From: Alphaproteobacteria bacterium
GTDB taxonomy: Bacteria; Pseudomonadota; Alphaproteobacteria; RF32; CAG-239
Reading direction: 5' to 3'
Assembly: GCA_017470585.1 (NCBI GenBank)
Contig: JAFUYI010000009.1
Coordinates: forward strand, 954-64,953
Length of the DNA stretch: 64,000 nucleotides
This document shows positions 17,458 through 43,674 of the stretch, piece after piece. The notes beneath the pieces were generated by a model. It worked only from the letters and a program-made list of their open reading frames with translations, searched no databases and was not told the origin of the DNA. How positions within the stretch are numbered: the first letter of the stretch is position 1; each line of letters begins with the position of its first letter. The position numbers and the translations under genes were made by a program.

Positions 17458-18426
17458 TTAAGTTACCTCGGTTACGGCGCGCAAGTTGCCGTCACGGTTG
17501 ATTTGAACCACCCTTAATTTATGGTGCATCTCCTCAATTGTCTTGCGTCTGTCCAAAGTCGGATAGGAGTGCAAAATACGATCAACAAACGCCTCGTACG
17601 CCGCACTGGAACTTTCGGCGTGGATGGTTGCCAAGCAGTTATCGTGACCTGATCCCATCAGCTCCCATAAAGCTCCGGCGTTTCCGGTTGAAATCTCACC
17701 TCCGATAATCGCATCCGGAGTAAAACGAACCACCAAGTCAATAATTCCTTTATAATCGAACTGGTTGGTCTGTCCGGTACGCGACATTACGATATGAACA
17801 CGATTAGGGTGCGGAACCAAAAGTTCCCGCGCATCCTCAATCGTTATAACGCGTTTATGAATGTCCAAAATTTTCAACAAGTTGTTCAAAAAGGTGGTCT
17901 TACCGGTTGCAGTCGCACCGCTGACCAGAATATGATCACCCCTTTTAATACTCAACAGCAGCCGTTCATACGGATCATCGGGGTCTTTAATATTCTTCAA
18001 CGGGTTAATTTGGTGCAATTTTTCACCCTGTTTCAAACCGTAATCCCCCAAACCGAACGCCACATCATCGCTATGAACACGGATAGCTATAGCAACACCG
18101 CCGGTAATATCGCCTTCATCGTACATCACGTTTTTACCGCAGATTGCCGAAAAACGATGTTCCCCGGGAATAGTGGCATAAACCACCGGCGTTCCCGAAA
18201 CCGGATCAAACGGCAGTTCATAGGTATTGGCAACGATATAAAGTAAATCAGTCAAGTACTCCTTGCTTAATTTTTCATCTTTATACATCACCCACGGATA
18301 CGCCCTTTTGCCGCGCAGTCGGAGCCATACCTGCCCGGAGCGGTTAATGGCAACCTCTTCAATGCCTTCTTGGTTGTACCAGTATGCCAACGGGCGAAGA
18401 ACCGATTCCAATACTTCAAAACTCAT
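17458..18426 (-). CDS. virB11: T4SS ATPase VirB11/TrbB family
   Basis: 322 aa; Walker A SGATATGKTTFLN, Walker B/His box; T2SS-E/VirB11 family. Confidence 0.9.
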   Translation of the reverse strand: MSFEVLESVLRPLAYWYNQEGIEEVAINRSGQVWLRLRGKRAYPWVMYKDEKLSKEYLTDLLYIVANTYELPFDPVSGTPVVYATIPGEHRFSAICGKNVMYDEGDITGGVAIAIRVHSDDVAFGLGDYGLKQGEKLHQINPLKNIKDPDDPYERLLLSIKRGDHILVSGATATGKTTFLNNLLKILDIHKRVITIEDARELLVPHPNRVHIVMSRTGQTNQFDYKGIIDLVVRFTPDAIIGGEISTGNAGALWELMGSGHDNCLATIHAESSSAAYEAFVDRILHSYPTLDRRKTIEEMHHKLRVVQINRDGNLRAVTEVT

Positions 18427-18438
18427 ACTTTCTCACTC

Positions 18439-21400
18439 CTAGAACAGTTGCGGAACATCACTGCTGCCCGAAGACACACCGGACGAACGATTGGTTGTTA
18501 CGACGCCGGTACTCGGCGGAGGCGGAGGTGTTGCGCCGACGGCGGGTTTAGCTCCTCCCGAGGTCGCCGTATCATCTACCAAAGCCATTGCCGGCTGGGC
18601 ATCAGTTGAATCACCCTCATATACTACCGAAGATGAACCGCCGCCCTTGCCGAAGTTAGCCTTACGGTTAGCCTCATCGGCAGCACGCTGATTAGAGGTC
18701 TTTTTATCGTCAATCAAGACATCTTTATATTCTTCGTTGTCCGAACCGTCTGCGGCATTATCGGCTGTGCGCAGCCACAAATCAACTTTCGGGTAAACGA
18801 TAATGCGTGTCCCCGCCGGAATAAAGGTAATTGCACGGATATTTGAGCGGTCGGCCAAAATCTGGTTGAACATCGCTTTGGTATCATCCAAAAATCCTTC
18901 GCGGGCATCGTTCATTGCCTGTTGCTTTGAGGTTTCGTTTTCCGAATCCGAATTTTCATCAGTTGAGAACAAAATCGCCATACCGTTATTAGCCAAAGAA
19001 GTGGCAAACGGCATTGCATATTTTTTGACCAACTGGCGATCCAAATATCCCAGCACGCCGCCGCGTCCCTGTGCGTCGCCGGATTGCGCCGAACTGATGT
19101 CAAACATTACACCGTTGGGCATAATCAAACGATCCCATTGAATGGCAATACGCGCCGAGGCGGAAGCATCTTCGGCTCCAGAACCGCCGCCGCAGGAGCC
19201 TAGCAATCGGCTGCCCGCCGGAATAATTACGTTACGCCCGTCTTCGGCATAAACATTGCGCTCCACAAACGCCGTAACCGGAACTTCGTGTTCGGTGTCA
19301 ATCGAGCGGGCAATAACTGCCGGTATCGGCTTATCCGCCAAAATCATCATATCCATATCAACCGGCAGTGTGGAGATAACTTTTTTAACTCCCCAATCTT
19401 TCTGTTTGCCGTCAAAGGCTTCGCGGCTGTATGAAGTGCTGATCTTTCCGACTTCCATATTCTGCCGTCTTACACCTTGCGCAGCTGATAATGCTGCCGA
19501 ACGCTGCACATCATATCTTTCGCCGGGACCGAATCCGCCGCCGGGGCCTAAATTGCCGGGACCGTCTCCGGTGCCGTATGCACCGCCCTCACCGAATGTT
19601 CCGGCGGGAACGAAAATCTCTCCTTTGTCCGCTCCTTTTGCCGACTCCTCAATACCGATAAGAGAGCCTTGGTCATCAACCACCAAGCCGTCCGGCAACA
19701 ATTTTCCCAAAACTTTGCCCGACTTATTGATAACACTGCCGTCCTCCAAAATATCACCCAGATACTCGCCGTCCGGAGTAAGCGCAATATTTACCGAGCG
19801 TTTATAATCTTTTTCCTGAACTTTGATTGTTCCCACCTCGGGCAGCTTTTGTTCTACAACCGTGGGTTTTTCATACCAATCAAGTTTGGTATTGCCGATA
19901 ATCTGACCGTCATGGCTGACTGCCGAACCGTCCTGATTGAGCATACCGATAAAGTTGCCCTTGGCATCGACAATCTTGTTATCCGAACCGACATAACCTA
20001 TCACATTGCCTTCGGCATCATAAATAGGTCTTCTTTTTTCGGCTTCATAAAACTGCAAAGGCTTGGCGGTTGCAATAATCTGCCCGTCGGTTGCCTCAAT
20101 ATCGCCGGCAACCCCTAATGTACCTATTTGTTCGCCGCTTTTAGCAATTACCTTGCCGTCAAGGTTAAGCTCGCCTATTACCTCGTTTTGCTTGTTGCGG
20201 ATAAAGAAATCACGGTTGCCGCGGGCAAACATTTTAGAAGAATTATCAACGGCAAAGCCCTTTATCATTTTGCCGATACGCTGATTGGTAAATGAAATAA
20301 TACTGCCGTCTGAAGCAATGTAGCCAACCGCATTGTGTTCGTTGTTGTACATATACATATCATATAAGGCAAAGCCTATCGCATTACTGCCGGAGTTGAC
20401 ATTACCGTCAAAATCAACCGTTCCGAGCTTTTGACCGCGTCCGTCAATTACTTCACCTTGTTCATTGACAAGCCCCATGTACTTATTATTGTTATCAAAG
20501 GCATAACGATACTTAAACACCATTCCCGCCGCAGTTCCGGTTCTGGAATTAACCACATCATCAGGGGTGGCATAGCCGATATTCTGTCCGCTTTGGTTTA
20601 CCACACTGCCATCAATCAATGTACGTCCGATAATTTTGGAATCAAAATCAATAACCGGAAAAGTCTGCATCACAACTCCGATGAGTGCGCCTTGTTTATT
20701 GTGCAGACGGTTCTGCCAATCAACGCACCCTAAACTCTCTCCGGAATAATTTATCACTTTACCTTTGGAGCTGACCATACCGACAGTCTGCCCGCCGAAA
20801 TCCGTAACGGATCCCGGAACAATCGCAAAACCGACCACATTGCCGCCCTCGGAAATAACTTGCCGATTGGGTAAAACAATTCCCATGGACACTTCACGAT
20901 AATTTTTAACATCACCGCCGGGGGTTACGGTACCGATAAAATCACAGCGACCGTTAATAACAGGCATCAAACCCAGAACTTCTCCTATGCCTTCTCCGGC
21001 ATTATCCAAAACTATGCCTTGGGAATTTACCCTTCCGGCAACCGCTGCGCCCGCATCATAAATCAACCCTTGATTATCGGCATAGCCCAAGAGCATTCCG
21101 TCATAAGAAACCGCCGTTTTAGCTTGCAAAGCATATCCGATAACCGGCATATATGCACCTGCGGCAGTAGAAACCACACTGCCATCAGGCAAAATCTTGG
21201 CCAAGGGTTTTAAGTCTTGACTTAAAACCTGATTGCCATCGGCCAAAACGCCAAGACTGCCTCCGCGGAAATTAACCGCATACATCGGGTTCACACTGCC
21301 GCCGGAAAGTTTATTGTTCTTATCAATATCAAATCCGTATTGTGTCAATCGTCCGGATTGAACAGCACCGCGGTTGGTTATTTCCCCGTTGGGAGAAATT

Positions 21401-22755
21401 GCCCCGATAACCGTTCCGTTAAGAGAATAAATACCGCCAAGAGCAACCGTGTTACCGTCAATTCCTCCTTCGGGACTATAGACATATCCGAACGGAGAAA
21501 CAATCCTCTTTTCATCACTTTTACTCAAAACCGAGTTAATTCCCGTAACCCCCAACGGTTTGTTGTTGTCATCAACCACAACTTTGCTTTCCAAGGTGGC
21601 TCCGATTACCTTTCCGGAGCTGTTAAGGGCAAAATCTCCTCTCATAATTCCCAAAGGTGTGCCGTTGGGCAAAATCACCTGTCCGTTTTTAAGCGCGTGC
21701 GCCCGCAAAGCCCCCCGATAGTCAAAAATCGGACCGGAGGCAATAACTTTGCCTATTTGCTTGCCGTCGGCATCAAAAATCACATTCCACGGACCTATGC
21801 GCCCTACGATATTACGCCCGCGGGCAATTTTTCCCTCCGGCATAATGCGTCCCAAATATTTACCGGAAGAATCGGCGGCAGTAGCGGCAATATCTGCCAT
21901 AAATCCGATTGTATTGCCTCCGGTATCGGCAATACTGCCATCAATCTGCAAATACCCTATCAGTTTTTCGTTATTGATAACCTCGCCGTTATAAGTAACC
22001 AAACCGATATATTTTCCCGATATATCAAAAGCATAACCTGATTTAACTATACTTCCGATTACCTTATCGGCTTCATCATAAGCAAAACCGTTGGCCTTAA
22101 TGAAACCTATCTGTCTGCCTTCAAAATCGGTAACTTTTCCGCCCGGAGAAACACTGCCGATAAAACGCCCGACCGCATCAATAACCATTTTCGAGGAAAT
22201 TAACCGCCCCTCTAAAATAAAATCATTACCGGAACGTTTATAAGCATAGCCGTCCGGAGAAACAAAACCTATGGTCTGTCCTTGGAGGTTGGCATACATT
22301 CCATCTCCGGTCAAACGCCCTACTGTCTGCCCGTTATCGTCATAAATCAAGCCCGGAAACAAAACCGAACCCAAGATTTCAAATCTGTCATCAACCACCA
22401 AACCGTTAGGCAGAACTTTACCGATAATTTTTCCGGTTGAAAGGCGAACCGTACCGTCATTATTTACTTTACCCAACATACGGTTATCATTGCCAATGGC
22501 AATTCCCCGCGGAATAACACCGCCGATGAGACGACCATCAAAATCCACAATCAAGCTGTCGGCGGTGATATTGCCGATTAACTGATTTTCAAAGCTGACC
22601 ACTTTTCCGTCCGGAATAACCTTTCCGATTAAATCGCCGTTAAAGTCAATGGCCGTAATTTCCTGTGCCATTGCGACCGAAGAGTACAACATCAAAACCG
22701 CCGTTCCTAACAGGCGGGAAATTCTGCCGATTTTGACTTTTAACTTTCCCATCAA
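18439..22755 (-). CDS. virB10: VirB10/TrbI-domain T4SS core protein with ~1000-aa N-terminal tandem-repeat extension
   Basis: 1438 aa. N-terminal signal/TM (LLGTAVLMLYSSVAMA), then about 45 degenerate 20-22-aa repeats (DxxGxxIGxVxxxGxVxD). The C-terminal ~250 aa match the VirB10/TrbI beta-barrel domain (TLPVDMDMMILADKPIPAVIARSIDTEHEVPVTAFVERNVYAEDGRNVIIPAGSRLLGSCGG...IAIQWDRLIMPNGVMFDISS...AITFIPAGTRIIVYP). A Pro-rich C-terminal tail follows. Confidence 0.8.
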   Translation of the reverse strand: MMGKLKVKIGRISRLLGTAVLMLYSSVAMAQEITAIDFNGDLIGKVIPDGKVVSFENQLIGNITADSLIVDFDGRLIGGVIPRGIAIGNDNRMLGKVNNDGTVRLSTGKIIGKVLPNGLVVDDRFEILGSVLFPGLIYDDNGQTVGRLTGDGMYANLQGQTIGFVSPDGYAYKRSGNDFILEGRLISSKMVIDAVGRFIGSVSPGGKVTDFEGRQIGFIKANGFAYDEADKVIGSIVKSGYAFDISGKYIGLVTYNGEVINNEKLIGYLQIDGSIADTGGNTIGFMADIAATAADSSGKYLGRIMPEGKIARGRNIVGRIGPWNVIFDADGKQIGKVIASGPIFDYRGALRAHALKNGQVILPNGTPLGIMRGDFALNSSGKVIGATLESKVVVDDNNKPLGVTGINSVLSKSDEKRIVSPFGYVYSPEGGIDGNTVALGGIYSLNGTVIGAISPNGEITNRGAVQSGRLTQYGFDIDKNNKLSGGSVNPMYAVNFRGGSLGVLADGNQVLSQDLKPLAKILPDGSVVSTAAGAYMPVIGYALQAKTAVSYDGMLLGYADNQGLIYDAGAAVAGRVNSQGIVLDNAGEGIGEVLGLMPVINGRCDFIGTVTPGGDVKNYREVSMGIVLPNRQVISEGGNVVGFAIVPGSVTDFGGQTVGMVSSKGKVINYSGESLGCVDWQNRLHNKQGALIGVVMQTFPVIDFDSKIIGRTLIDGSVVNQSGQNIGYATPDDVVNSRTGTAAGMVFKYRYAFDNNNKYMGLVNEQGEVIDGRGQKLGTVDFDGNVNSGSNAIGFALYDMYMYNNEHNAVGYIASDGSIISFTNQRIGKMIKGFAVDNSSKMFARGNRDFFIRNKQNEVIGELNLDGKVIAKSGEQIGTLGVAGDIEATDGQIIATAKPLQFYEAEKRRPIYDAEGNVIGYVGSDNKIVDAKGNFIGMLNQDGSAVSHDGQIIGNTKLDWYEKPTVVEQKLPEVGTIKVQEKDYKRSVNIALTPDGEYLGDILEDGSVINKSGKVLGKLLPDGLVVDDQGSLIGIEESAKGADKGEIFVPAGTFGEGGAYGTGDGPGNLGPGGGFGPGERYDVQRSAALSAAQGVRRQNMEVGKISTSYSREAFDGKQKDWGVKKVISTLPVDMDMMILADKPIPAVIARSIDTEHEVPVTAFVERNVYAEDGRNVIIPAGSRLLGSCGGGSGAEDASASARIAIQWDRLIMPNGVMFDISSAQSGDAQGRGGVLGYLDRQLVKKYAMPFATSLANNGMAILFSTDENSDSENETSKQQAMNDAREGFLDDTKAMFNQILADRSNIRAITFIPAGTRIIVYPKVDLWLRTADNAADGSDNEEYKDVLIDDKKTSNQRAADEANRKANFGKGGGSSSVVYEGDSTDAQPAMALVDDTATSGGAKPAVGATPPPPPSTGVVTTNRSSGVSSGSSDVPQLF

Positions 22756-25700
22756 TTCCTCCGATTTTTAGCAACTTCCTGCAACGCATATCCGGCAACT
22801 CTCTTATCCAAATTGATAAACGAGCCGTTACTCTTCAGATAGCCGATGACTTTATTTTCGGTATCAATCACCATACCGTTGGCGTTTAATCTTCCGACAT
22901 AACGTCCGGTATTGCTCAATACCGTTGCACCGATTTTATAAATACGTCCCAAAATTCCCTCATTGGCATCAAGAGCCAAATCGGTTGAAAGACTGCGTCC
23001 GACAACCGCGCCGCCACTGTCAACAACCGAACCGTCGGCGGCAATATAGCCGACAACTTTATCTTCGCTGTTAATCACCAAGTCGCCGTCAACCACTTCG
23101 CCGATTAAACGTCCCGAACTGTTCAAAACATTGCCATCCGACAAAGCTCTGCCGATATTGATATTCAAAACATCCAAAACTTCGCCGTCGGGCATAACCG
23201 AACCGATAACTTTACCCGAAAAATCAATCACCGCGCCGCGTTTTAATAAACTCAAATTCTTATCGGTTGAACCGCCCGGAAGAATCGCAGTGATATTCTT
23301 GCCGTTCAAATCAATAACATCCCCCAATGAATTGATATGCCCTTTATAATTGCCCCAAACGTCAACCACGATTTCCTCGCCGATAACTTCGCCGACAATC
23401 GCTGATTTGTTATTCAAAGCCTTGCCGTCCGGAGTACTGCGTCCCACGGTTTTGCCGTCCAAATCAATGATTTTGCCGTCCGAGAGGCTGTAGCCCAAAA
23501 AAGAACCGTCATATCCTATTGCCGCACCGCGTTTAACCACGCCGCCTTTTACAACGCCCTGTTTGTCAAAATAATAACCTTTGGCATCTAAACGCCCCAG
23601 TTTCTCACCGAAACGATTGACAACCTCATTATTATATCCGACCATACCGATGACCTTGCCGGCAAAATCAATGACTTGACCTCGCAAAGCCGTAAATCCC
23701 GGCTTGCGGTTATAAAAGGCTGTTCCGTCCCCGTAAAACTTGCCGGCGGAAACTCCTTTGCCGTCATATACATTGCCGTCCGGGAACAAACGCCCGATAA
23801 CAGAACCTTTGTAATCAACTATTGTCGTCTTGGAAGGCATTGCCACACCGATAATTTTAGAGTTTTCATCAATTACGACATTATGAGCCAAAAGCCGTCC
23901 CGACGACTGCCCGCGGATAGGAACTCTGGCATTGGAATTAACCATATTCAGGAAGTTGCCTTCCAAATCATAAGCGTAAAGATTTTCCAAAACCCTGCCC
24001 AAATACGCGCCTTTTTTATCAAAAACATCTCCGTAAGTACCTACACATCCGACGGCTTGCCCCTGCGGTGATAAAACCAGACCGTTTTCCTCAACTTTGC
24101 CCAAGAAATTGCCGTCATAGGAAACCGCAATCCCCGAACGAGCCACACCGCCGATAATATCGCCTTTTTCATCCAAAACCGTACCATCAGGATTGACACA
24201 TCCGACATAGCTGCCGTTTTGGCGCACGATTCCGTCGGTTTCAACTTCACCGATTTTGGTACATGTATCATCAAAAACCGGTCCCAAAGTTACAACTTCG
24301 CCGATGTATTCTCCGGTATCGTCAATAATCACTCCGTCCGCATTGACTTTGTATTTCGTGGTGATATTTGCGGCCTTAATTGTGCCGTCTTTTTCAAGAT
24401 AGCCGATATTTTTGCATCCCTGTCCTACAACCAATCCTCCGCGGACAAGACGGGCGACAATCGTGGAACCGCTAGGGCTTTTAACCATACCGTTTGACTG
24501 TACGCGTCCGACAATCTGCTTGGCATCGTTTTCAACTGTTCCGTTATTGTTGACTTTACCCAAAACTTTACCCTGCGGAGTAATCGGAATCATCTGTTCT
24601 TGAATCAAACGTCCCAAAACATTCTGCGTATTATTGATAACTTGTCCGTTTTCATCAACATAGCCTATGACATTGCCTTCGGTATCAAAAACTTCTCCGT
24701 CCCGTCCGACATACCCCATAATCTTGCTGTTTTTATCCAGCAAAACATTGGCAAATCCGCCGACTTCGCCGATTTCATTGCCATCATTATCAACAATTTT
24801 TCCCGAGGGCATAAGCTTACCGATGGCATCGCCGTTGAAATTGACCACATTGCCGTTTTCATCGACATATCCCATAACGTTACCGTTTTTATCGTACGCC
24901 AACTGGCGCGACATTAACCCCGCTTGTCCGATAATTTGACCGTTTTCATCAACAATTGTACCGTCATCAAGCATTTTACCGATAATCTGACCGGAAAAAT
25001 CAACTACGTTACCATCTTCATCAACATAGCCGATAATATTGCCGTCCTTGTCATAGGCAAGACGTTTATTTGATCCGCCGTCGAGCTTACCGATAACATT
25101 TCCGAAAGCATCTATTATTGTGCCGTCATCTTTAAGCGAACCGATTTTCTTACCGTTATCACCGAAGACATTACCGTTTTCGTCAACATAGCCCATAACT
25201 TTGCCGTTCTTATCGTATGCCAAACGAAGATTATTGCCCTCGGTTGATTGTTTGGTTTTACCGATTACACGACCGTTTTTATCAACCACCGCTCCATCGG
25301 CACGGACTTTACCTATAACTTTGCCGTCATTGCCGATAACCTGACCGTCTTTGTCAACATAGCCGATAACTTTTCCGTTCTCATCGTATGCCAAGCGCGC
25401 AGCTTTGCTTTTGCCGGTCTTGCCGATTATTTTACCGTTTTCATCAATAATCTTACCATCAGCACGAACCCGTCCGATAATTTCACCATCGCTGCCTATG
25501 ACATTTCCGTTATCGTCAACATAGCCGATAACTTTCCCGTTTTCATCGTATGCCAAGCGAGCGGATTTAGAAGAAGCTTTCTTGGCTTTACCGATTATAT
25601 TTCCGTTTTCATCAATAACATTGCCGTTTTCATCTTTGCGCCCGATTACTTCGCCGTCAAAATTATAAACGTTGCCGTCTTCACCGACATAGCCTATAAT

Positions 25701-28250
25701 ATTGCCGTTTTCATCGTATGCAAGCTCATTTTTGCCCGATACACCGATAACATTACCGTTTTCATCGACAATCAAACCGTCCTCATTACGATGACCTATA
25801 ACTTCACCGTCAAAATTGCGGACATTACCGTTTTCATCAACATAGCCTATGACATTGCCGTTCTCATCGTATGCAAGCTCATTTTTGCCCGATACACCGA
25901 TAACATTACCGTTTTCATCAACAATCAAGCCGTCTTCATTGACACGACCGATTACCTCTCCGTCAAAATTATAAACATTGCCGTCCTCTCCGACGTATCC
26001 TATAACATTGCCGTTTTCATCATACACAAGTTCGTCACGAGAAGATGAGCCTATCACCTGTCCGTTTTCATCAACAATTGTACCGTCGGCATTAAGCTTG
26101 CCTATCTGCTTGCCGGTAAAATCATAAACATTGCCGTTTTCATCAATGTAACCGATAACATTGCCATCATTATCGTATGCCAAACGTTGCACCGGAGCCT
26201 TACCGATTATATTGCCGTCCTCATCTACGACATTTCCCTCATCATCAACACGGCCTATGATTTTGCCGTTAAAATCAACCACATTGCCGGCATCATCAAC
26301 ATAACCGATAATATTGCCATTATCATCGTATGCGACTTTTTGTTTTGAGGACATTCCTATAATATTGCCGTCATCATCAACAATTAACCCATCGGAACGC
26401 ATATGCCCGATTTTATTGCCGGCAAAATCATAAACATTGCCGTTTTCATCGATATAACCGATGACTCGACCATCTTTATCGTACGCCAAACGTTGCCCGG
26501 GAGCCATACCGATAACTTCACCGTTTTCATCTACAATCAAGCCTTCTTCATTTACCTGCCCGATGACATTGCCTTTCAAATCGTGCACTATGCCGTTGTC
26601 ATCAACATAACCGATAACGTGTCCGTCTTTATCGTAAGCCCAGCTTGATACTTTGGAATCAACATCACCCTCCGGTGCGGCACGTCCTATGATGTTGCCT
26701 TCTTCATCGATCAACATCCCGTTTTCAGCCATAATGCCGAGCTTTTTACCGCCCTCACCGATAACATTGCCGTTTTCATCAATGTAGCCGATAACGTGTC
26801 CGTCATTATCATAAGCCAATAACGCTCCCGAAGCCGTTAATTCGTTGCCGTCGTTATCAACGATTTTACCGTCGGGACGAGTGCGTCCGATAACATTGCC
26901 ATGAAAATCACGAACAGTTCCGTCATCATCAACATAGCCTACAACCTGTCCGTCCTTATTATAGACCATGCGCCGCGATATGCTCTTACTCGGAAGATTC
27001 TTATCAGCTATAACATTGCCGTCTTTATCAACACGTCCGACGACCTCACCGTTGGCATCGACCACCGTACCGTCAGGCATAACCACGCCGATAATGTTAC
27101 CGTCTTCATCAACCGCCACCCTTCCGGTTTTGGTAACATGACCGATAACCTGCCCGTTTTCATCTACGACTTCGCCTTTTTCATTGAGTCTGCCGATAAC
27201 TTGTCCGTTTTCATCAACCACTGTACCGTCCGGCATAACCCTGCCGATAATATTGCCGTCATCATCATAGACATATCCCATATCAACGGCATGACCGATG
27301 ATCGAACCGTTGGCATCAACCACCGTACCGTCAGGCATCATCTGTCCGATAACATTACCGTTTAAGTCAACGACACTGCCATCAGGATTGACATAACCTA
27401 TAACATTGCCGGAATCATCATAAACAAGCTTTCGGTTATTGGCAACACCGATAATGTTACCCTCACCGTCAACCACAAGACCGTTTTCGTTTACTCTTCC
27501 GATAACGTTACCGTTGGCATCATAGACATACCCTTCATCGTCGGCATAGCCGATAACCGAGCCGTCCGGCCCCACGATTGAACGTGAACGCGGCGATGCG
27601 CCTTTGGCGTTCTTTGATGCAACCGCCGCTCCGCCCAAATTGGTATCACAGAAATTGCAGTCCTCTTTGGTAACAGCATTGCCGTAAACGGGAACTTTCT
27701 CGGATTTGGCATTGGCTTGAGTTACGTTGCTCTCATGCCATGAAATGATAAAATTATTCTGCACATTGCCGGTTACAACCGGAACCCAGCTCATGGTAAC
27801 ATCACAGGTTTCCTTACCGCGCAGAACTTTACCGCTGCATTGATCATTGAATTTAAATCCGTCAAACGGTGTTTCCGCAAGCTGCACGGTCAAAATTGCC
27901 ACCGAGGCTTTACCGTTGGTGCCAATAGTTAAAACATTTTTAGCATCAGAACCGATAATCACCTGCCCCAAAGCGACAGGATTGGGAGTTGTGGTAATCG
28001 GCGGAACCCCCTCATCAACAGTACTGAACTCAATGCTTTCCTCTTGGGGAGCGGATTGAGTAACCACGTTTAGAGGATCGTCGTTGGAGGTAAACACCGG
28101 CTCGCTGTATTCGCTGATTTGATCATCACTTGAAAACAACAAATACAATCCGATGACAAAAATAACAAAAGAAGTTATACCAACCGCAAGAATTATGCGG
28201 TTGGTTTTTTTGATATAACTTTCAGAATGTGTTAAAACTTCTTTACTCAT
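22752..28250 (-). CDS. Giant membrane-anchored tandem-repeat protein (~1832 aa), same repeat type as the VirB10 N-terminus; translationally coupled between virB9 and virB10
   Basis: ORF 22752-28271. The likely start MSKEVL is at 28248-28250, forming an ATGA overlap with the virB9 stop. N-terminal TM helix (ILAVGITSFVIFVIGLYLLF), a ~190-aa non-repeat domain, then about 70 copies of DxxGNVIGYVDENGNVxDxxGxVIG-type repeats to the C-terminus. The stop overlaps the virB10 start (ATGA). Confidence 0.7.
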   Translation of the reverse strand: MSKEVLTHSESYIKKTNRIILAVGITSFVIFVIGLYLLFSSDDQISEYSEPVFTSNDDPLNVVTQSAPQEESIEFSTVDEGVPPITTTPNPVALGQVIIGSDAKNVLTIGTNGKASVAILTVQLAETPFDGFKFNDQCSGKVLRGKETCDVTMSWVPVVTGNVQNNFIISWHESNVTQANAKSEKVPVYGNAVTKEDCNFCDTNLGGAAVASKNAKGASPRSRSIVGPDGSVIGYADDEGYVYDANGNVIGRVNENGLVVDGEGNIIGVANNRKLVYDDSGNVIGYVNPDGSVVDLNGNVIGQMMPDGTVVDANGSIIGHAVDMGYVYDDDGNIIGRVMPDGTVVDENGQVIGRLNEKGEVVDENGQVIGHVTKTGRVAVDEDGNIIGVVMPDGTVVDANGEVVGRVDKDGNVIADKNLPSKSISRRMVYNKDGQVVGYVDDDGTVRDFHGNVIGRTRPDGKIVDNDGNELTASGALLAYDNDGHVIGYIDENGNVIGEGGKKLGIMAENGMLIDEEGNIIGRAAPEGDVDSKVSSWAYDKDGHVIGYVDDNGIVHDLKGNVIGQVNEEGLIVDENGEVIGMAPGQRLAYDKDGRVIGYIDENGNVYDFAGNKIGHMRSDGLIVDDDGNIIGMSSKQKVAYDDNGNIIGYVDDAGNVVDFNGKIIGRVDDEGNVVDEDGNIIGKAPVQRLAYDNDGNVIGYIDENGNVYDFTGKQIGKLNADGTIVDENGQVIGSSSRDELVYDENGNVIGYVGEDGNVYNFDGEVIGRVNEDGLIVDENGNVIGVSGKNELAYDENGNVIGYVDENGNVRNFDGEVIGHRNEDGLIVDENGNVIGVSGKNELAYDENGNIIGYVGEDGNVYNFDGEVIGRKDENGNVIDENGNIIGKAKKASSKSARLAYDENGKVIGYVDDNGNVIGSDGEIIGRVRADGKIIDENGKIIGKTGKSKAARLAYDENGKVIGYVDKDGQVIGNDGKVIGKVRADGAVVDKNGRVIGKTKQSTEGNNLRLAYDKNGKVMGYVDENGNVFGDNGKKIGSLKDDGTIIDAFGNVIGKLDGGSNKRLAYDKDGNIIGYVDEDGNVVDFSGQIIGKMLDDGTIVDENGQIIGQAGLMSRQLAYDKNGNVMGYVDENGNVVNFNGDAIGKLMPSGKIVDNDGNEIGEVGGFANVLLDKNSKIMGYVGRDGEVFDTEGNVIGYVDENGQVINNTQNVLGRLIQEQMIPITPQGKVLGKVNNNGTVENDAKQIVGRVQSNGMVKSPSGSTIVARLVRGGLVVGQGCKNIGYLEKDGTIKAANITTKYKVNADGVIIDDTGEYIGEVVTLGPVFDDTCTKIGEVETDGIVRQNGSYVGCVNPDGTVLDEKGDIIGGVARSGIAVSYDGNFLGKVEENGLVLSPQGQAVGCVGTYGDVFDKKGAYLGRVLENLYAYDLEGNFLNMVNSNARVPIRGQSSGRLLAHNVVIDENSKIIGVAMPSKTTIVDYKGSVIGRLFPDGNVYDGKGVSAGKFYGDGTAFYNRKPGFTALRGQVIDFAGKVIGMVGYNNEVVNRFGEKLGRLDAKGYYFDKQGVVKGGVVKRGAAIGYDGSFLGYSLSDGKIIDLDGKTVGRSTPDGKALNNKSAIVGEVIGEEIVVDVWGNYKGHINSLGDVIDLNGKNITAILPGGSTDKNLSLLKRGAVIDFSGKVIGSVMPDGEVLDVLNINIGRALSDGNVLNSSGRLIGEVVDGDLVINSEDKVVGYIAADGSVVDSGGAVVGRSLSTDLALDANEGILGRIYKIGATVLSNTGRYVGRLNANGMVIDTENKVIGYLKSNGSFINLDKRVAGYALQEVAKNRRN
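25000..26650. repeat. Near-identical intragenic tandem DNA repeats (~147-nt higher-order unit encoding ...VSGKNELAYDENGNVIGYVDENGNVRNFDGEVIG...)
   Basis: Protein residues ~560-900 of the giant ORF contain almost identical consecutive 47-49-aa blocks. The opposite strand yields long artefactual periodic ORFs (25248-26048, 26403-26648). Boundaries are approximate. Confidence 0.6.
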
Positions 28251-29875
28251 TGGGTTCTTACCACACTGCAAAATACACCGTTACGTCCCAATTTGCTGCA
28301 GACACCGTCGCCCTCATCAAGGGTCTTAACAGGTCCTATTCTCAAGTGGAACAGTTCTTTGCCCTGCCCGTCGGCCGGAGCATCTACCGAGAAGAACGGA
28401 TCATAGTTTTTCAAAATTTTTGAGTATTTATCGGACAAGCTGTCCCACAGATTCTCAAGGGTTTCCACATTAGCATCGGTGCCGAGTTCAATGGAGATAT
28501 TAGACCCTGCCCCATCGGCAAAACCGGAGCCGTATTTATAGCGATTTGAAAAATCACTGGCAGCAGGATCAAATTGCTGCGTATTCTGAATCCGGTGCAT
28601 CTTGGAGTAATCAAAATCACCGTTTGCTCCGTAACCGTTAGCATTTCCGGCTCCTCGTCCCGCCATAGAGTATTCGGGAACAATTACCTCACTGCCTCCG
28701 ATATTGATGTCAAACTGTCCGCTCGGGTAGTTTGCGGCATCCCCCATAACACCGGAATTAAAGTCAGGATATTCCGCCGAACCGGCTTTAATCTGCTTTC
28801 CGCCCGGTATTTTAGCACCGCGATCCCATTCTTTGGCTGTAATATCATCGGCATAGCTGACATCATCCAATCCGGCATCATCGGAACGGCGCAATTTCAG
28901 ACACACGATTCTTTTACCGTTGCGCAACACCATATCACCTATGGCTTCAACGATAATCAAACGGTTATTCGGACCTTTGGTGCGGAATCCGACCGGAACT
29001 TCCATTCTTTCCACAATCAGCGTTACAATCGGACGCTGTGTCATATTAAGCGATTTGGCTCCCAAATCAATATAAGTGAAAATATCATCCCGCCAAACAC
29101 GTTCCGGAGCAATTACAACGTCTTCCGGATGAGGAACATAAACCTCTATATCAAAACGAAATTTGGTCGGGTCAAGAGGAATATTCTCAACCCAACTGTT
29201 TTTTTGGTTACGTTTTGTAAAAGTGGAATCAACGGACTTTCCGGAATTACCGTAATATTTACTGGCATTAACGTGTGAGCCGCCGTTTCCCCCTATAGCT
29301 CCGGCTCCGCCCGATTCGGCTCCTATTACCTCAATATCCACAATCGCATTGGTAAGACGTTCGGTGTTAACCCCCTCACTTCTGGCATAGAACACATAAC
29401 GATTGCCGGAACGTCCGAATACGATAATATTGGTATCAACCCCGACATTTGCCCCTTTGCGCGGATATAAAAGCAATGTACTGGGACCTGAAATCTGTCC
29501 GTCAAAAGTGGAATTATCACCGATATAAATATCCTCAATCATCTCCCACTCGGGGAAGTTAATCATCGTAATCATACCTTCGCGCAGACGCAACGGCAAG
29601 ACCAAATCCGGCGACCAATAATATTTGGAATAAGCCGGCTTGCTCTGCCCTTCACCGAGATTCTGCAAAGGATCAAGCCATGCACTTTGCATCATCCCCA
29701 AGGAATTAAATCCGGCATAGCTCATATCCATAGGCTGGTATTGCCCTTGTGATTGATCCGCATTTTGGTCCATGCTGCTAATGGTTGCCTGTGCTTTAAC
29801 CTCTCCCGAAAACAATATCAGAAGCAGGCTTAACATACTTATTTTCATAGACTTTGATAGCATAGCTTTATCCAC
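28247..29875 (-). CDS. virB9: VirB9/TrbG-like T4SS outer-membrane core protein with C-terminal Gly-rich extension
   Basis: 542 aa; signal peptide (MKISMLSLLLILFSGEVKAQA). The central region aligns to the VirB9 C-terminal domain (VIAPERVWRDDIFTYIDLGAK...RPIVTLIVERMEVPVGFRTKGPNNRLIIVEAIGDMVLRNGKRIVCLK). An extra ~170-aa G/N-rich C-terminus ends in a SPOR-like ...FHLRIGPVKTLDEGDGVCSKL segment (weak). Confidence 0.7.
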   Translation of the reverse strand: MDKAMLSKSMKISMLSLLLILFSGEVKAQATISSMDQNADQSQGQYQPMDMSYAGFNSLGMMQSAWLDPLQNLGEGQSKPAYSKYYWSPDLVLPLRLREGMITMINFPEWEMIEDIYIGDNSTFDGQISGPSTLLLYPRKGANVGVDTNIIVFGRSGNRYVFYARSEGVNTERLTNAIVDIEVIGAESGGAGAIGGNGGSHVNASKYYGNSGKSVDSTFTKRNQKNSWVENIPLDPTKFRFDIEVYVPHPEDVVIAPERVWRDDIFTYIDLGAKSLNMTQRPIVTLIVERMEVPVGFRTKGPNNRLIIVEAIGDMVLRNGKRIVCLKLRRSDDAGLDDVSYADDITAKEWDRGAKIPGGKQIKAGSAEYPDFNSGVMGDAANYPSGQFDINIGGSEVIVPEYSMAGRGAGNANGYGANGDFDYSKMHRIQNTQQFDPAASDFSNRYKYGSGFADGAGSNISIELGTDANVETLENLWDSLSDKYSKILKNYDPFFSVDAPADGQGKELFHLRIGPVKTLDEGDGVCSKLGRNGVFCSVVRTQ

Positions 29876-29876
29876 C

Positions 29877-30605
29877 TTATTTTACTTTATTGTAACTCAA
29901 AGAATAATTCACAACCGTAAATCCGACCGGATTTTTAAGACGTTCTTTGAATTTTACGCTTTTATAACGATACATAACTTTTAGCGAGGCCGTCCAATAA
30001 TTTATCTCCGGAGTCTTGGAATCGGGATACATATCACGGGTTTCATACTCAACCTGCCATACTCCGTCGCTTAACTCGTTCACGGTCATAATCCGCACAT
30101 CGCGCATCATACGCCGCGTGCGGATAAGTTCCAAAGCCCTGCCGGCGGTGTTTTTTATAAAATCATCATACACTGCAGAGGAGGACATTTCCTGAATCGC
30201 TCCGCCCGCGCCCCATCTGGCCTCAACCTCGGGAATATCGCGGTTAAAAGAGCTGCGCATTAAAACATACTGCCGCACAAAAGCCTCGGTTATAGCTCTT
30301 TCTTCGGTTAAATTACGATTAACCGGCTGAATATTATAAACCTGCTCTTCCTTATTTTGGAACGTCATCAAAAACGGCTCGACACGATACAGCGGGATAA
30401 CCTGCAGAATCGCCAAGAGCAAAATCAGATTACAACAAAAACTAACGGCCGTAATAATAGCAAAAGCACGCGCAGTCCACAGATAGCGTTTTTCGGCAAC
30501 ATTGGCGACAAAAGCCTCATTTCCTGCCCCCGAATCGGGCTTAATGCTTTTTCCGGTCAACAGGCGTTGATTATTATTACGATTCGTCACAACGGGTGCG
30601 GGCAT
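29877..30605 (-). CDS. virB8: VirB8 family protein (paralog a)
   Basis: 242 aa; cytoplasmic N-terminus, one TM, periplasmic NTF2-like domain (...EAFVRQYVLMRSSF...WQVEYETRD...WTASLKVMYRY). Confidence 0.8.
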   Translation of the reverse strand: MPAPVVTNRNNNQRLLTGKSIKPDSGAGNEAFVANVAEKRYLWTARAFAIITAVSFCCNLILLLAILQVIPLYRVEPFLMTFQNKEEQVYNIQPVNRNLTEERAITEAFVRQYVLMRSSFNRDIPEVEARWGAGGAIQEMSSSAVYDDFIKNTAGRALELIRTRRMMRDVRIMTVNELSDGVWQVEYETRDMYPDSKTPEINYWTASLKVMYRYKSVKFKERLKNPVGFTVVNYSLSYNKVK

Positions 30606-30617
30606 AATTTCAATCCC

Positions 30618-30806
30618 TTAAATAGTTTCAACAAACCAATCCGGCAATGTTTGCGGCAATTCAAGTTGCATACAGGCGCAAGGAGAAAGCTTTAATTCAT
30701 CGGTTGCCTTACCGATTTCAACCGGCTCCGGCTCATAATAGGAACCGAAAATACCGCAACCGGCAAGCAAGGCAACAGCAAGCAACAATATTAACTTTTT
30801 GGTCAT
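30618..30806 (-). CDS. Small lipoprotein, VirB7-like
   Basis: 62 aa; signal with lipobox LLAGC, Cys-containing mature peptide. The position between two virB8 genes and upstream of virB9 is typical for VirB7. Confidence 0.5.
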   Translation of the reverse strand: MTKKLILLLAVALLAGCGIFGSYYEPEPVEIGKATDELKLSPCACMQLELPQTLPDWFVETI

Positions 30807-30903: not shown

Positions 30904-31662
30904 TTATTGGAATTGTACTTCACTCTGATTATATCTTGTAACCGTAAAACCTAAAGGATTTATTAACCGACGACCGACAAAAAGACGTTCCGGGAAAAAA
31001 TATGAGGTAACGGATGCCGTCCAGTATTTAACGTTAAGAATAAGGGAGCCGGTCTCTCCGTTGCGGTTGCGCTGCGACACCTCATAAGTTTTAAAGTCAA
31101 CTTTCCACACCGGACTTTTTTTTCCGCCGACTTTGCCCACCGAAATAATTTCCACTTCTTGGCTTATTTGTTCATCAATATTGCGTTGCCAAACATTTTC
31201 CCGATATTTATTAAATTCCTCAAAAATAGGATCGCTTGATAAAAAATGAACGATTCCCCCCGGATACCAACGCGACATCATCTCCAACTGGTCGTTAATG
31301 ATGGTATTGCGGTATAAAACATATTGGCGGACAAATATCTCCATCAATTTTTCTTTTGAAGCCATATCATGAGCAATCGGTTCATAGCGAACCATATCAT
31401 CGGAATCCCTTTGATTGATAATCAAAAACGGCTCAACCGACACTCTCGGGGCAAGATTAAACAATGCCAGAGAGGCTGACAAGAATAAAGCCAAAGACAG
31501 CGTTGCCGTAAATAAGAACAATCTTGAAAGCCACATATAATAATACATCTTGGCACTGCGTTTTTCACGCTCATTCTGCCCGATAAAGCTGTATGTTTTG
31601 CCGCTTTTATCGGTTAAGACCTGAACTTTGGTTGTTTCAAGAATATTTCCTAAACTGCTCAT
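30904..31662 (-). CDS. virB8: VirB8 family protein (paralog b)
   Basis: 252 aa; TM (LFLFTATLSLALFLSASLALF) plus NTF2-like domain (...EIFVRQYVLYRNTI...WKVDFKTYE...WTASVTSYFFP). Confidence 0.75.
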   Translation of the reverse strand: MSSLGNILETTKVQVLTDKSGKTYSFIGQNEREKRSAKMYYYMWLSRLFLFTATLSLALFLSASLALFNLAPRVSVEPFLIINQRDSDDMVRYEPIAHDMASKEKLMEIFVRQYVLYRNTIINDQLEMMSRWYPGGIVHFLSSDPIFEEFNKYRENVWQRNIDEQISQEVEIISVGKVGGKKSPVWKVDFKTYEVSQRNRNGETGSLILNVKYWTASVTSYFFPERLFVGRRLINPLGFTVTRYNQSEVQFQ

Positions 31663-31677
31663 TTCCCTGTTATTCTC

Positions 31678-34600
31678 TTAATAAGGCATACAAACCGGCT
31701 GTTCGTATTCATCAATTTCTTTTCTTATTGAAGCATAGCCCTCATTTCTCGCTTTGGCAATCACTTTTTGATTAGCCTGTTCACTCCTTATCTTTTCGGT
31801 CAGCGGACTGCCGGATTTAGTATTGGCGGTTACACTCACCAAAGCTTGCGAATCCTGAATCATAGCCTTATAAGTATTATTGATTTTATCATAACGTTCT
31901 TTAACTGTTTCATCGTTGTAGTTCACGCGCGATAACTCACTTTGCACCTGTCCCATCATGGTATTCTTACGTTCCTGAAGTTTGCGTAAGACATAATTAT
32001 AATCATCATCACGGGAAAGATCCAGATTATCTTTAAGTGTAAAGCCCATCTTACCGAACGTTTCGCGCAAGCTCTCAACAAAATCATCTATACTGCCTTT
32101 TAACTCCGTTAAGTTCTTGTCAATCTGATTTTCTTTATCCACAAAGTGCAGGAAATCGCCTATCTGATTGGTTGTAAACATCGCACGCTGATAGGTGTTT
32201 TCCTCGGCAGATAATTCATATTTACCTGTTTTTTGCGCTTTTTCCTCTTTGGCAATAAGCTTTTCAAAACCCTCATGCGGACGGTCATTCAACAACAATC
32301 GCCCTTTTTTATAGCGCAGAAACATTCCCAACTCACTGCTCACCGGCTCGTTTATTTCTCCGGCGGCATTAGCTTTAACGCTGCCTTTAACATCTCTGTC
32401 ATAGATAATATATGTTTCCAAAATATTGCCTATTCCAACCGTATGTCCGGCAATGGTCAAATCTTTACAGGTCTGCAAGCTCTTGAGCTTCTGCAAGTTT
32501 TCGGCACTGAATTGCTTTTGTGTATTGACAATGGAATATTTACCTGAATTATCCATATCTATCATATAGCTGCCGACTTTACAGGGAAGTATAATTCCCC
32601 GCATATAGGCTTTAACTTCGCCGCCTTTTTCCAAGATTCGTCCCAAATCAGCTCCTCTTTCCACATAAGCTTTATCGGAAAGCAACAGCTGCCATACATA
32701 CGGCTGACTTACACCGTATTCAAGAAACGCTGTACTGGTGAGCTTACCGTCACTGCCTTTTTCCAAATTACGGTAATCGGTAGTATCAAAATGCACCATA
32801 TCACGGACAGTAGGATAGTGTGCCGTCAACGGAGCTTTGGGAGCGGTAAAGTCTCTGGCTTTGGCTGGAAGTCCTGCAAAATACTGTTCGTCAGCCGCAT
32901 CGCAGGTATATTCGGAACATACGGACTTATTCAAGGTCGTCTTGAAAGCAGTAGTCAGCATGGAAACGATACCGGACGAACCGACATTAAAGGTACCGAT
33001 GGCCACAGCAACATCGTGATTAAAGCAGGTTTTCGGTAAATCTTTGAGTTTGCCCACCAAATCGGTGTGCATTTTAACGATTTTGGGATTGTTATAAGTC
33101 ATATATAACTCATCGTTTTCACTCATCTTCATCACGTCTTCATAGTGATCGCTTATCAATCCCGCGGCACAACTTCTGGCTCTGTCTATCAAGCTGTCGG
33201 CTTTTTTTACCATATCAAGCACATCACCGTCATCAAGCTTTAGAGCCTTATATATGCCGGCAAGCTTCGGCGCGCTGTCTATAGCATCTTGCAGAGCCTG
33301 AAGTTTATCATTATATTCGGTTTCAATCGCCGTAATATCTTCTTGATATTTTTGATTGAGGGTATTGATTTTATCATTATTCGCCTCAATTTTGGCACGA
33401 ACCGAATCCCGGTTTTGTTCATACTGCTTTAATTTGGCACGCAACTGCCCCAACTCCGTTATTTTGGTCGCCTGCAGATTGCCGGCTTCCTCTAATGTAA
33501 GTTTTGCCATCGTATAAGTAGAAGAACTGGTATTTGTACCGCGTGCGTTTAAGGCCTCAATTTCCCGACGGGCATTTTCCACTTTACTCTCGTTTAATGC
33601 GCGTTCTCCATCGGCGGTATTTATTTTTTGGGTTACATCGCCTATCATCGCCGCCCACGCATCCAATTGTGTGTTAAGTGCAGTATTTGAGGTCTTATAA
33701 GGAAGTATTGCCGCAGCCTGTTTAGCCTTGATTGAAGCCAACGCCGAAGCTTTGGCGGCGAGCAAACCGGTCGACGAGGAAGATGAAGACGTATTCCCGC
33801 CCAACGCATCTTCAATCAACGCCAGACCGGCGTTAATTTTCTTTTTATCAACGGCTATCGGGTTGCCGCTATTAATCTTTTTGGCAATTTCCAAGGCCAG
33901 CAAATTAACTTCTATTCCGTCAATATAATTTTTCATATTATTGTATTTGTTTTCCAAATACTGGTCATAATATGCCCTTTGGTCATTCCATAAAGGATAC
34001 GGGTGAGCCGGTTTGCCGTATATCGGCTTTTGTGAATTTTGATCCTCAACCAAAATCTGCGCCGCTTTGCGACCTATCTGCCAATTCAGGAGTTCAACCT
34101 CACGCACCGAATCGGAAAAAGCCTGCGCCCGGCTGGGATTTGCCAAAACGTCATCATCCGAGCCGGAAGATGTGTCCACCGGATCATAATCCACCTCTGT
34201 GAGCCTGTCCGAATCCTTTGAAGTATCAATCTCAACCTCACCGAAAGCATCCAAATCAAACTCATTACCCACCGAAGCGTTAGCAACCTGATAGGCAGAA
34301 ATTGCCCAGCCCGAAAGACCCTTGCGGCTGTCATAATCACCGGGATCTTTCGGAGGAGTACTCTGTCCGAACCATACCATATTAGGTTCATCATAGCGAC
34401 GACCGATATACTGAATCACACATTGATCAGAGGTTTTAATCGCTTCAACCGCCTTGGCACGAAGCTCGGTATAAAGCCGATACTGCGTATAAACATCTTT
34501 ATAAGTGGGCATTCTCTGCAAGAGATTATGCGCTTCCATCGCCTCATTTACATATTTTTGCGTATCGGCAATAATTCCCAAAGCTTTAATCTGTGTTTCG

Positions 34601-36875: not shown

Positions 36876-36884
36876 GCGCCTCCT

Positions 36885-37529
36885 TTATTCGTCTTCTTTC
36901 GGCGGCTGCATATTGCGAGCCATAAGCCGTAAAACAAATTCTTTTGCTGATGCCTGCATATCGTTAATACGATTCAGACGGCGTGATGCTTCCGTTGCTT
37001 CTTTAGTGGCTTTTTTTATCATTTCGCGACTGTCTTTGGCATCTCCCGTCGACTCTTCGGGTTTGGCATCTTTGTTTTCTTTTGCCATATTGGTACGCAA
37101 AGTAAATGCGTAGGCATACATACGAGTCAAATACCCTCGAAGCATTTCATCATTAAGGTCTTTATTAGCCTGCGCCGCCTCAATCTGATTGGTTTCCGCA
37201 TTCTGCGGCATGGTAGATTGCACAGCATCCGAAAGTTTTCGCTTGTCTCCCAATGCAGCAGCCAAAGACTTCGGCTCCGTAACCGAAACAGCATCAAAAT
37301 TCAAACCGCTGCTCTCGGCAACTCCGGTTAAAGCTCCGATATCGCCTTGACGTGCAGAATTATAAGTTGATTCAATGGTTTGCAATTTTTGCTCAATAGT
37401 TTGTTTTTTGGCTTGAACATCCTCCAGAAAAGTCAAGGATGTTTCGACAAACTCAAAGTCGGCTCGAGCTTGAGGAATACTGACTATTCCCCATCCGATT
37501 GCCAATATCCACAAAGCTTTCTTCATCAC
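36885..37529 (-). CDS. Secreted helical protein (214 aa), possible VirB5/TrbJ-like minor pilus component
   Basis: Signal peptide MMKKALWILAIGWGIVSIPQARA; size and all-helical character fit VirB5. This is a positional/compositional guess only. Confidence 0.35.
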   Translation of the reverse strand: MMKKALWILAIGWGIVSIPQARADFEFVETSLTFLEDVQAKKQTIEQKLQTIESTYNSARQGDIGALTGVAESSGLNFDAVSVTEPKSLAAALGDKRKLSDAVQSTMPQNAETNQIEAAQANKDLNDEMLRGYLTRMYAYAFTLRTNMAKENKDAKPEESTGDAKDSREMIKKATKEATEASRRLNRINDMQASAKEFVLRLMARNMQPPKEDE

Positions 37530-39223: not shown

Positions 39224-39302
39224 ACCACCCTCCGTTATGAGATTCGTCCTCATAAGCTATGATAACAGAAAAATTTTATTTTATAAACCAATTTTATGCA
39301 AA

Positions 39303-42015: not shown

Positions 42016-42102
42016 TATTCCTCCATAAAAATTGATTAACTCGATTTTACAATAAAACTTTTTTGATTGCAACAAAAAACCTCTAAAAAATTTATTTTTT
42101 TA

Positions 42103-43585: not shown

Positions 43586-43674
43586 TTTGCTTTCCCTTTT
43601 AATGCTTATGTTTGTTTTATACCGCAAATTTGCGGTATTGTCAAGTATTTTTATAAAGGCAAAATTTTTTTTGC

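Follow-up and report, generated by a model that had tools for sequence, protein, structure and literature searches.

A 64,000-nucleotide stretch of contig JAFUYI010000009.1 (assembly GCA_017470585.1, positions 954 to 64,953 of the forward strand; hereafter the window), from a metagenome-assembled genome (MAG) of Alphaproteobacteria bacterium, carries an operon for a type IV secretion system (T4SS) of the VirB type. One long open reading frame (ORF) of this operon, here called virB10-C, was taken in a preliminary description as a complete VirB10 fused to an N-terminal repeat domain. The analyses reported here indicate that a giant VirB10 is probably encoded by two translationally coupled genes, the flagged gene specifying its outer-membrane half. 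On the best reading of the sequences, virB10-C is only this half, and the parts missing from it, a cytoplasmic tail, a transmembrane (TM) helix and an immunoglobulin (Ig)-like domain, are found on the adjacent upstream gene, virB10-N, which encodes 1832 amino acids; relatives carry both parts in one polypeptide.

A VirB10 domain preceded by beta-hairpin repeats

The ORF was called at 18439..22755 on the minus strand; the true start is the ATG at 22752, and the resulting 1437-aa product is identical (100%) to database protein P0001, annotated as 'TrbI/VirB10 family protein [Alphaproteobacteria bacterium]'. The protein begins with a signal peptide, continues with about 59 beta-hairpin repeats and a Gly-rich linker, and closes with the TrbI barrel and a tail at the C-terminus. 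Judging from sequence profiles, the product is a VirB10 family member by its C-terminal domain, as had been proposed. The TrbI/VirB10 profile PF03743 matches from position 2 to position 188 of 188 with 117.2 bits (cut-off 35; E 1e-33). Among proteins of known structure in the PDB, ComB10 of Helicobacter pylori is the top sequence match (E 2.7e-20, and 2.5e-27 when the family profile is used as query), followed by TrwE of R388, CagY (chains at E 3e-8), TraF of pKM101 and Xanthomonas VirB10; no DotG chain was found among these matches at E <= 0.01. The ComB10 alignment spans the segment corresponding to the putative antenna helix-loop-helix, and two long helices (model residues 229-255 and 269-297) appear in an AlphaFold2 (AF2) model whose predicted local distance difference test score (pLDDT) is only 43. 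The Pro-rich periplasmic linker is absent. The hairpin array and the Gly-rich linker stand in its place, and the sole run of prolines, PPPPP, is located in the C-terminal tail.

The region of about 1000 residues upstream of the VirB10 domain is made of tandem repeats, as anticipated, their period being shorter than the 20-22 residues originally assigned. Autocorrelation, the strand spacing of the AF2 model and the consensus DxxGxxIGxVxxDGxVx all give 17 residues, and the longer period is rejected. At lag 17 the mean BLOSUM score is +0.25, far beyond chance (shuffled maximum -0.75 +/- 0.03). Three Pfam families match the array over their cut-offs, namely Bflower_2 (214 bits, cut-off 38), Bflower (76.5 bits, cut-off 25) and DUF3659 (31 bits), and neither a Pfam pentapeptide match nor a match to YD-repeat hidden Markov models (HMMs) at E <= 0.01 was found on the protein. 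The AF2 model of residues 30-1045, built with 22 orthologues, is all-beta. It features 115 strands with a modal two-strand spacing of 17; 49% of the residues are in strands, and only 18 of 1016 are helical. Its pLDDT is 82.5 and its predicted template modelling score (pTM) is 0.76, a value that, over 1016 residues, suggests a defined overall arrangement of the modelled array. Conservation is highest in the first 220 or so residues of the mature protein (0.71-0.87), compared with 0.65-0.77 in the barrel and about 0.45-0.5 in the middle repeats. Between species, over most of its length, the array keeps its residues position by position, and hardly any change is seen in its N-terminal part. No tandem repeats were detected at the DNA level in the virB10-C gene of the window by Tandem Repeats Finder (TRF).

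The N-terminus of VirB10-C had been described as a TM helix. The hydrophobic stretch is short and nowhere reaches the threshold adopted for TM helices (Kyte-Doolittle 1.6 over 19 residues). It ends in an AxA-type signal peptidase I site, where 77/77 species have A or S at position -1, and position -3 is mostly A or V. From one species to another the n- and h-regions change freely, and the mature N-terminus, QEITAIDFNGDLIGKVIPDGKVV (QEITAIDFNG...), is nearly invariant. Because of the short, sub-threshold h-region, the conserved -1/-3 site, the variable n- and h-regions and the invariant mature end, the leader reads as a cleavable signal peptide, and the TM anchor is rejected for this protein. 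Cytoplasmic tail and inner-membrane helix are not on the VirB10-C polypeptide; both are on the product of the upstream gene.

The probable upstream half and its counterparts in other genomes

The stop codon of virB10-N overlaps the start codon of virB10-C (TGATG), and a GGAGG sequence lies 7 nt upstream. VirB10-N starts with a short basic cytoplasmic tail and a TM helix (residues 19-37, Kyte-Doolittle 2.65), followed by the motif SEPVF; SEP[VI]F is common to conventional VirB10s that contain an Ig-like domain. The first 205 residues align by hhalign to the N-termini of these conventional VirB10s with a probability of 97.4% and an E-value of 1e-11, whereas generic Ig-like families score far worse on the same module (ASH, E 0.002). 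The repeats that follow belong to the same 17-residue family as those of VirB10-C, and are matched in Pfam by Bflower_2 (473 bits), Bflower, DUF3659 and RHS_repeat. About six copies of a 153-bp DNA tandem repeat (51 residues, equal to three hairpins), matching at 65-79%, are located inside virB10-N at 25590-26515 (-).

Relatives were found in 153 species by a scan of one genome per species, and 80 loci were kept for the inspection of gene order. All the relatives come from MAGs of gut or rumen origin, which bear the labels Alphaproteobacteria, 'uncultured Azospirillum' or Candidatus Scatocola. Every long-enough locus of the 80 keeps the order 1308-aa protein, VirB8, VirB8, VirB9, large repeat protein, VirB10, VirB11, and the same fusion of repeats to VirB10 recurs in relatives. 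More than 100 clusters of full-length orthologues with the same domains (45-74% identity, 1418-1767 aa) were retrieved from NCBI, ENA, JGI and Logan assemblies. These sequences are public, and the only annotations they bear are TrbI/VirB10 family, DUF3659 and hypothetical protein; in the library searched, no published work was found that ties VirB10 to these repeats, or that describes the T4SS of this group of gut bacteria.

Two kinds of close relative emerged when the last 398 residues of VirB10-C were used as query in a full HMMER scan. The nearest VirB10s lacking repeats (550-630 aa; P0195 and P0205 are examples) consist of tail, TM helix, SEP[VI]F motif, Ig-like domain, Pro-rich linker and TrbI domain, and their TrbI domains are 33-38% identical to that of VirB10-C. 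The second kind are unsplit giants of 2063-2609 aa, in which a tail with the same motif as in VirB10-N, ..SE.Y[IV]KK[ST]NR, TM helix, Ig-like domain, beta-flower repeats and TrbI domain are all in one polypeptide. A 2287-aa unsplit giant (locus L081), found in two independent samples, is encoded between a virB9 with a faint SPOR match and virB11, and no separate repeat gene is present; the VirB11 of this locus is 67% identical to that of the window. Since VirB10-N has a VirB10-type N-terminus, and unsplit giants occupy the same operon slot, the two genes of the window probably fill the slot of one giant VirB10.

The C-terminal ends of these proteins differ. The terminal VPQLF-COOH (18442-18456, minus strand) is invariant in VirB10-C orthologues, most unsplit giants also end in [LMI]F (the proteins concerned are P0002-P0120, P0149 and others), and the nearest conventional VirB10s have another C-terminus, with a ..PW.. 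motif. The terminal Phe of VirB10-C is reminiscent of the sorting signal of outer-membrane proteins.

Across species VirB10-C ranges from 1314 to 2332 aa, and VirB10-N from 1103 to 2451 aa. The two lengths are negatively correlated (Spearman -0.50 in 71 species, -0.62 once four outliers are removed; values not corrected for phylogeny), which hints at a constraint on total length, and is suggestive only. Length variation was seen also among closely similar alleles. The proteins P0080, P0044 and P0038, from one related species abundant in the human gut, are 99.7% identical and are told apart by two insertions, 48 and 141 aa long, that keep the frame. Both insertions map to one hot spot of the hairpin array, near residues 920-970, and may reflect either recombinational variation in repeat number or an effect of assembly.

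Operon and genomic context

The operon is transcribed from the minus strand in the order VirB3 candidate, VirB4, four secreted proteins, VirB8a, VirB7 candidate, VirB8b, VirB9, VirB10-N, VirB10-C, VirB11 (Table 1). virB10-C is placed between the virB9 side and virB11, and the presence of VirB4, two VirB8, VirB9 and VirB11 supports the earlier notion that a long repeat array replaces the periplasmic linker of VirB10 in an operon of the VirB type (type IVA). The wider span of the periplasm, or the extension out of the cell, that the preliminary description derived from this array may be a consequence.

Table 1. Features of the T4SS operon and of the two VirB10 genes (positions in the window; aa, amino acids)
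Feature	Position	Strand	Evidence and remarks
virB11 ATPase	17458..18426	-	TIGR02788 VirB11, 3.8e-40; Pfam T2SSE
virB10-C	18439..22752	-	1437 aa; translation, Pfam and NCBIfam matches, 100% match to P0001
C-terminal low-complexity tail of VirB10-C, aa 1329-1437 (~105 aa)	18442..18768	-	PPPPP run, invariant terminal VPQLF; orthologue alignment
TrbI/VirB10 beta-barrel domain, aa 1138-1328	18769..19341	-	Pfam PF03743; PDB matches
Gly-rich linker and conserved pre-barrel segment, aa 1041-1135	19348..19632	-	kept across orthologues; low AF2 confidence
Array of ~59 17-aa beta-hairpin repeats, aa 30-1040	19633..22665	-	autocorrelation, consensus, Pfam, AF2
Signal peptide of VirB10-C, aa 1-29 (MGKLKVKIGRISRLLGTAVLMLYSSVAMA, then QE)	22666..22752	-	short h-region, -1/-3 rule, invariant mature end; predicted cleavage
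virB10-N	22752..28250	-	1832 aa; cytoplasmic tail, TM helix, Ig-like domain, roughly 95 17-aa hairpin repeats
Ig-like (ASH/HYDIN-type) domain of VirB10-N, aa ~84-195	27666..28001	-	hhalign; weak Pfam ASH (E 0.002) and NCBIfam choice-of-anchor D
virB9 (CagX-like), possible C-terminal SPOR domain	28247..29875	-	Pfam CagX, 9.4e-12
virB8b	29877..30605	-	Pfam VirB8, 3e-25
62-aa lipoprotein, lipobox LLAGC, VirB7 candidate by position	30618..30806	-	ORF and sequence
virB8a	30904..31662	-	Pfam VirB8, 8.8e-15
Four secreted proteins (1308, 424, 214, 575 aa) between virB4 and virB8a	31678..39253	-	signal-peptide-like N-termini
virB4 ATPase	39303..41735	-	Pfam CagE_TrbE_VirB, 8e-12
116-aa two-TM protein overlapping virB4 start, VirB3 candidate by position only	41725..42075	-	TM scan

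The C-terminal extension of VirB9, about 80 residues long, gives a weak match to SPOR, a peptidoglycan-binding domain (19.2 bits, below the cut-off of 21), and the same pairing is faintly seen in the VirB9 of the L081 locus. No Pfam match was obtained for the 424-, 214- and 575-aa secreted proteins, nor for the 116-aa protein upstream of virB4. The 1308-aa secreted protein (31678-35604, minus strand), which obtained nothing better than chance matches below threshold in Pfam and NCBIfam, is apparently helix-rich by composition, and is kept upstream of virB8a in related loci, where it spans 429-1602 aa.

Downstream of virB11 are found a gene for a small secreted protein and then uvrB; uvrB, accA/accD, leuS and trxB are the housekeeping genes surrounding the locus. 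The location among housekeeping genes and the lack of VirD4 and relaxase in the 64 kb of the window fit a chromosomal machine that is vertically inherited. The best reading of the locus is a VirB-type T4SS of this kind, similar in gene order to the Rickettsiales vir homolog (rvh) system, in uncultured gut Alphaproteobacteria.

The small protein downstream of virB11 is one of nine paralogous secreted proteins of about 160-190 aa, all encoded on the plus strand (8342-8863, 11870-12358, 16874-17389, 42369-42854, 43928-44461, 50993-51523, 53189-53734, 58868-59449, 60093-60626). They feature a signal peptide MNKYILMLG..SYCA.A followed by SNSATMTVTATIAHDVSL, end in ..ISYTAS, and share 37-63% mutual identity. 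Two of the nine flank the T4SS operon. Two copies scanned against Pfam gave no match, and none was found within 10 kb of the T4SS in the 80 related species. Past the upstream end of the operon, a HicB-like antitoxin (Pfam 1.3e-14) is encoded beside a 78-aa HicA-looking ORF (42948-43361 and 43391-43627, both on the minus strand). Elsewhere in the window a C-5 cytosine DNA methylase (9100-10830, plus strand) adjoins a serine resolvase/invertase with a helix-turn-helix domain (10827-11447, minus strand); the two may constitute a small mobile or phase-variable module.

Comparison with known systems

The preliminary description took a long repeat array in VirB10 to be unknown in operons of the VirB type. 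In the type IVA-related Cag T4SS of H. pylori, however, VirB10 is represented by CagY, an orthologue that differs from the others in having a large repeat region (PMC5954226). CagY (Cag7, HP0527; about 1900 aa) and VirB10-C both have a C-terminal VirB10 domain preceded by a very large repeat region, and in both systems the VirB9 partner is CagX-like. The repeats of CagY (5' and middle repeat regions) are alpha-helical modules (PMC2581425), whereas those described here are 17-residue beta-hairpins. CagY is one polypeptide, and no other cag-specific genes are present in the window, where two genes are found. The number of CagY repeats changes in frame between strains (PMC5954226, PMC2194252), and its gene contains direct DNA repeats; TRF detects none in the virB10-C gene of the window, though virB10-N hosts the 153-bp repeats, and the in-frame 48- and 141-aa indels are seen among alleles of a related species.

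The likeness to DotG (IcmE) of type IVB systems, drawn in the preliminary description, is fair as an analogy, since in both proteins a TrbI-type C-terminal domain follows a variable central repeat region. It does not extend to the repeats themselves. DotG contains 1-13 pentapeptide repeats, and its length, from 1000 to more than 1500 aa, varies between species and strains (PMC6761968); the period of 17 and the beta-flower/DUF3659 matches set the VirB10-C array apart. The genomic contexts differ as well, Dot/Icm in one case, VirB4, VirB8, VirB9 and VirB11 neighbours in the other. Repeat expansion N-terminal to the TrbI domain is the principle common to CagY, DotG and the proteins described here; the beta-hairpin type of repeat, the far larger size and the split into two genes distinguish the last of these.

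Conventional VirB10s with an Ig-like domain share with VirB10-N the N-terminal layout of tail, TM helix, SEP[VI]F motif and Ig-like domain; unlike the window's proteins, they are encoded by a single gene, and have a Pro-rich linker and no hairpin repeats. The beta-flower families (PF21784/PF21785, clan CL0395) were defined in 2023 from AlphaFold models by Durairaj et al.; they are characterized by a [DNEQ]xxG tip motif and have no solved structure, and the beta-flowers described are closed barrels of about 100 residues with 4-6 hairpins (PMC10584680). The tip motif, the short antiparallel hairpins and Pfam scores far over the cut-offs are found also in the proteins analysed here, in which about 59 and roughly 95 consecutive hairpins are fused to T4SS domains. 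Rhs/YD proteins have a closed shell and, at the C-terminus, a core, a protease and a toxin, features not found here; of the two proteins only VirB10-N matches YD models.

In Rickettsia, islet C of the rvh system has the order B8-small ORF (VirB7)-B8-B9-B10-B11, and its VirB10 is 481 aa long (PMC2653234). Both systems are chromosomal, alphaproteobacterial and of the P type, with two virB8 genes flanking a small ORF and followed by virB9, virB10 and virB11. The rvh system differs because its VirB10 lacks repeats, and because virD4 follows virB11 and multiple large VirB6 proteins are encoded after virB4; neither was found in the window, where virB4 is followed by genes for secreted, not polytopic, proteins.

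A probable two-piece VirB10 and its alternatives

VirB10 proteins characterized so far are anchored in the inner membrane, cross the periplasm, form the outer-membrane pore together with VirB9, and relay ATPase-dependent changes to the pore. In the organism under study VirB10-N would provide a short cytoplasmic tail, one inner-membrane helix, a periplasmic Ig-like domain and roughly 95 hairpins. VirB10-C, exported by its own Sec signal peptide, would bring about 59 hairpins, a flexible Gly-rich linker, the barrel and the VPQLF tail, and its TrbI barrel would join VirB9 in the outer-membrane cap. As anchor and pore domain are on separate proteins, the link between them would have to be non-covalent. 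We infer that the two hairpin arrays associate in the periplasm, because they share one repeat family, the genes are translationally coupled, the N-terminal hairpins of VirB10-C are extremely conserved, and the two parts are covalently joined in relatives. Docking would most likely involve the first 220 or so residues of mature VirB10-C, which are nearly invariant. Association of the arrays would rebuild the envelope-spanning, energy-transducing bridge formed by VirB10, and would enlarge the core complex by a very large amount of beta-sheet, which may be likened to the enlarged complexes containing repeat-expanded CagY and DotG.

Several points weigh against this reconstruction. VirB10-C misses the NCBIfam equivalog cut-offs for both T4SS_VirB10 (NF038091, 92.8 of 220 bits) and T4SS_ComB10 (NF038092, 113.1 of 300 bits), and is therefore a divergent member of the VirB10 family. 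The AF2 model of its C-terminal 431 residues is poor (pLDDT 43), and the array may be a solenoid, a chain of closed beta-flowers or a shape of another kind. BLAST comparisons of the two arrays, with each other and with those of the unsplit giants, gave alignments at about 26% identity in many registers, and showed neither a unique junction nor a sign of recent partial duplication. This multiplicity of registers prevents the mapping of a clean break point, and the two genes may have arisen by partial duplication instead of a simple split. The combined length of the repeats, about 2600 residues, exceeds the 1700 or so of the unsplit giants. VirD4, relaxase, VirB2 and VirB6 were not recognized in the window. 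The binding of VirB10-N to VirB10-C, the cleavage of the signal peptide and the periplasmic, rather than outward-threaded, course of the array are predicted from the sequences, as is the function ascribed to the repeats.

The arrays might, instead of a structural bridge, be mainly an exposed variable surface, involved in adhesion, immune evasion or tuning of secretion, and changing by in-frame recombination as the middle repeats of CagY do. The in-frame insertions found at one hot spot among almost identical alleles, and the 153-bp repeats of virB10-N, keep a CagY-like variable element alive as a secondary reading; the wide spread in length of both proteins, and the similar variation of the repeat regions of CagY and DotG (PMC5954226, PMC2194252, PMC6761968), agree with it. 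We nonetheless hold it to be unlikely. The virB10-C gene of the window lacks tandem repeats at the DNA level, the array is mostly conserved position by position and nearly invariant in its N-terminal part, unlike an antigenically variable surface, and differences in repeat copy number among metagenome assemblies can be artefacts. The array is moreover N-terminal to the barrel, and in all solved VirB10 structures, to our knowledge, this is the periplasmic side.

Much less probable, and largely refuted, is the view of VirB10-N as a separate protein, either accessory or a secreted substrate (an adhesin, a carrier of Rhs-like toxins or a peptidoglycan binder), sharing only a repeat type with VirB10, the flagged ORF being a complete VirB10 held by an uncleaved signal-anchor. 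RHS/YD models do match VirB10-N (PF05593, 126 bits; TIGR01643, 117 bits), Rhs and teneurin shells rank first among the Foldseek matches of the array model (E 1e-32), and VirB9 may carry a SPOR domain. Rhs core, protease and toxin domains are however absent from VirB10-N, which starts with an N-in TM anchor, not a secretion signal, and has an N-terminal module homologous to those of VirB10 proteins. The view is largely refuted by the relatives in which a single ORF, placed at this point of the operon, encodes the part corresponding to VirB10-N together with TrbI; an uncleaved anchor is at odds with a leader that obeys the signal peptidase I rule in all 77 species. Although the window derives from a MAG, and repeats misassemble easily, an artefact of assembly or gene calling joining a repeat protein to a normal VirB10, a risk acknowledged from the outset, is practically excluded by the continuous reading frame, by the conserved linker and junction sequences, and by the recurrence of the architecture, both in over 100 independently assembled clusters (45-74% identity) and in all 80 species loci inspected.

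Implications

The giant VirB10 encoded by two coupled genes, which we regard as the probable arrangement, bears on the one subunit of T4SSs that is defined by spanning both membranes and by passing conformational signals driven by ATP to the outer-membrane pore. A version cut in nature is a natural test of the coupling between the membranes and of the purpose of the linker. Canonical T4SSs contain 14 copies of VirB10 per complex; were VirB10-C also present in 14 copies, about 14 x 59 hairpins would be contributed by this protein alone. We tentatively propose, as a possibility going beyond the two-gene arrangement, that the bridge consists of two polypeptides joined via about 150 beta-hairpins into a giant beta-sheet assembly, of a fold experimentally unsolved, and that it represents a new architectural class of T4SS core complex in an abundant lineage of uncultured gut Alphaproteobacteria, possibly one in which repeat number serves for tuning or disguise as in CagY.

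The beta-flower repeats, recently named and devoid of a known function or a solved structure, are given a concrete cellular context by these proteins. The two-gene arrangement, with a huge array on each piece, is conserved across more than 150 related species, and suggests that gut Alphaproteobacteria common in humans, ruminants, poultry and rodents possess a conserved secretion machine.

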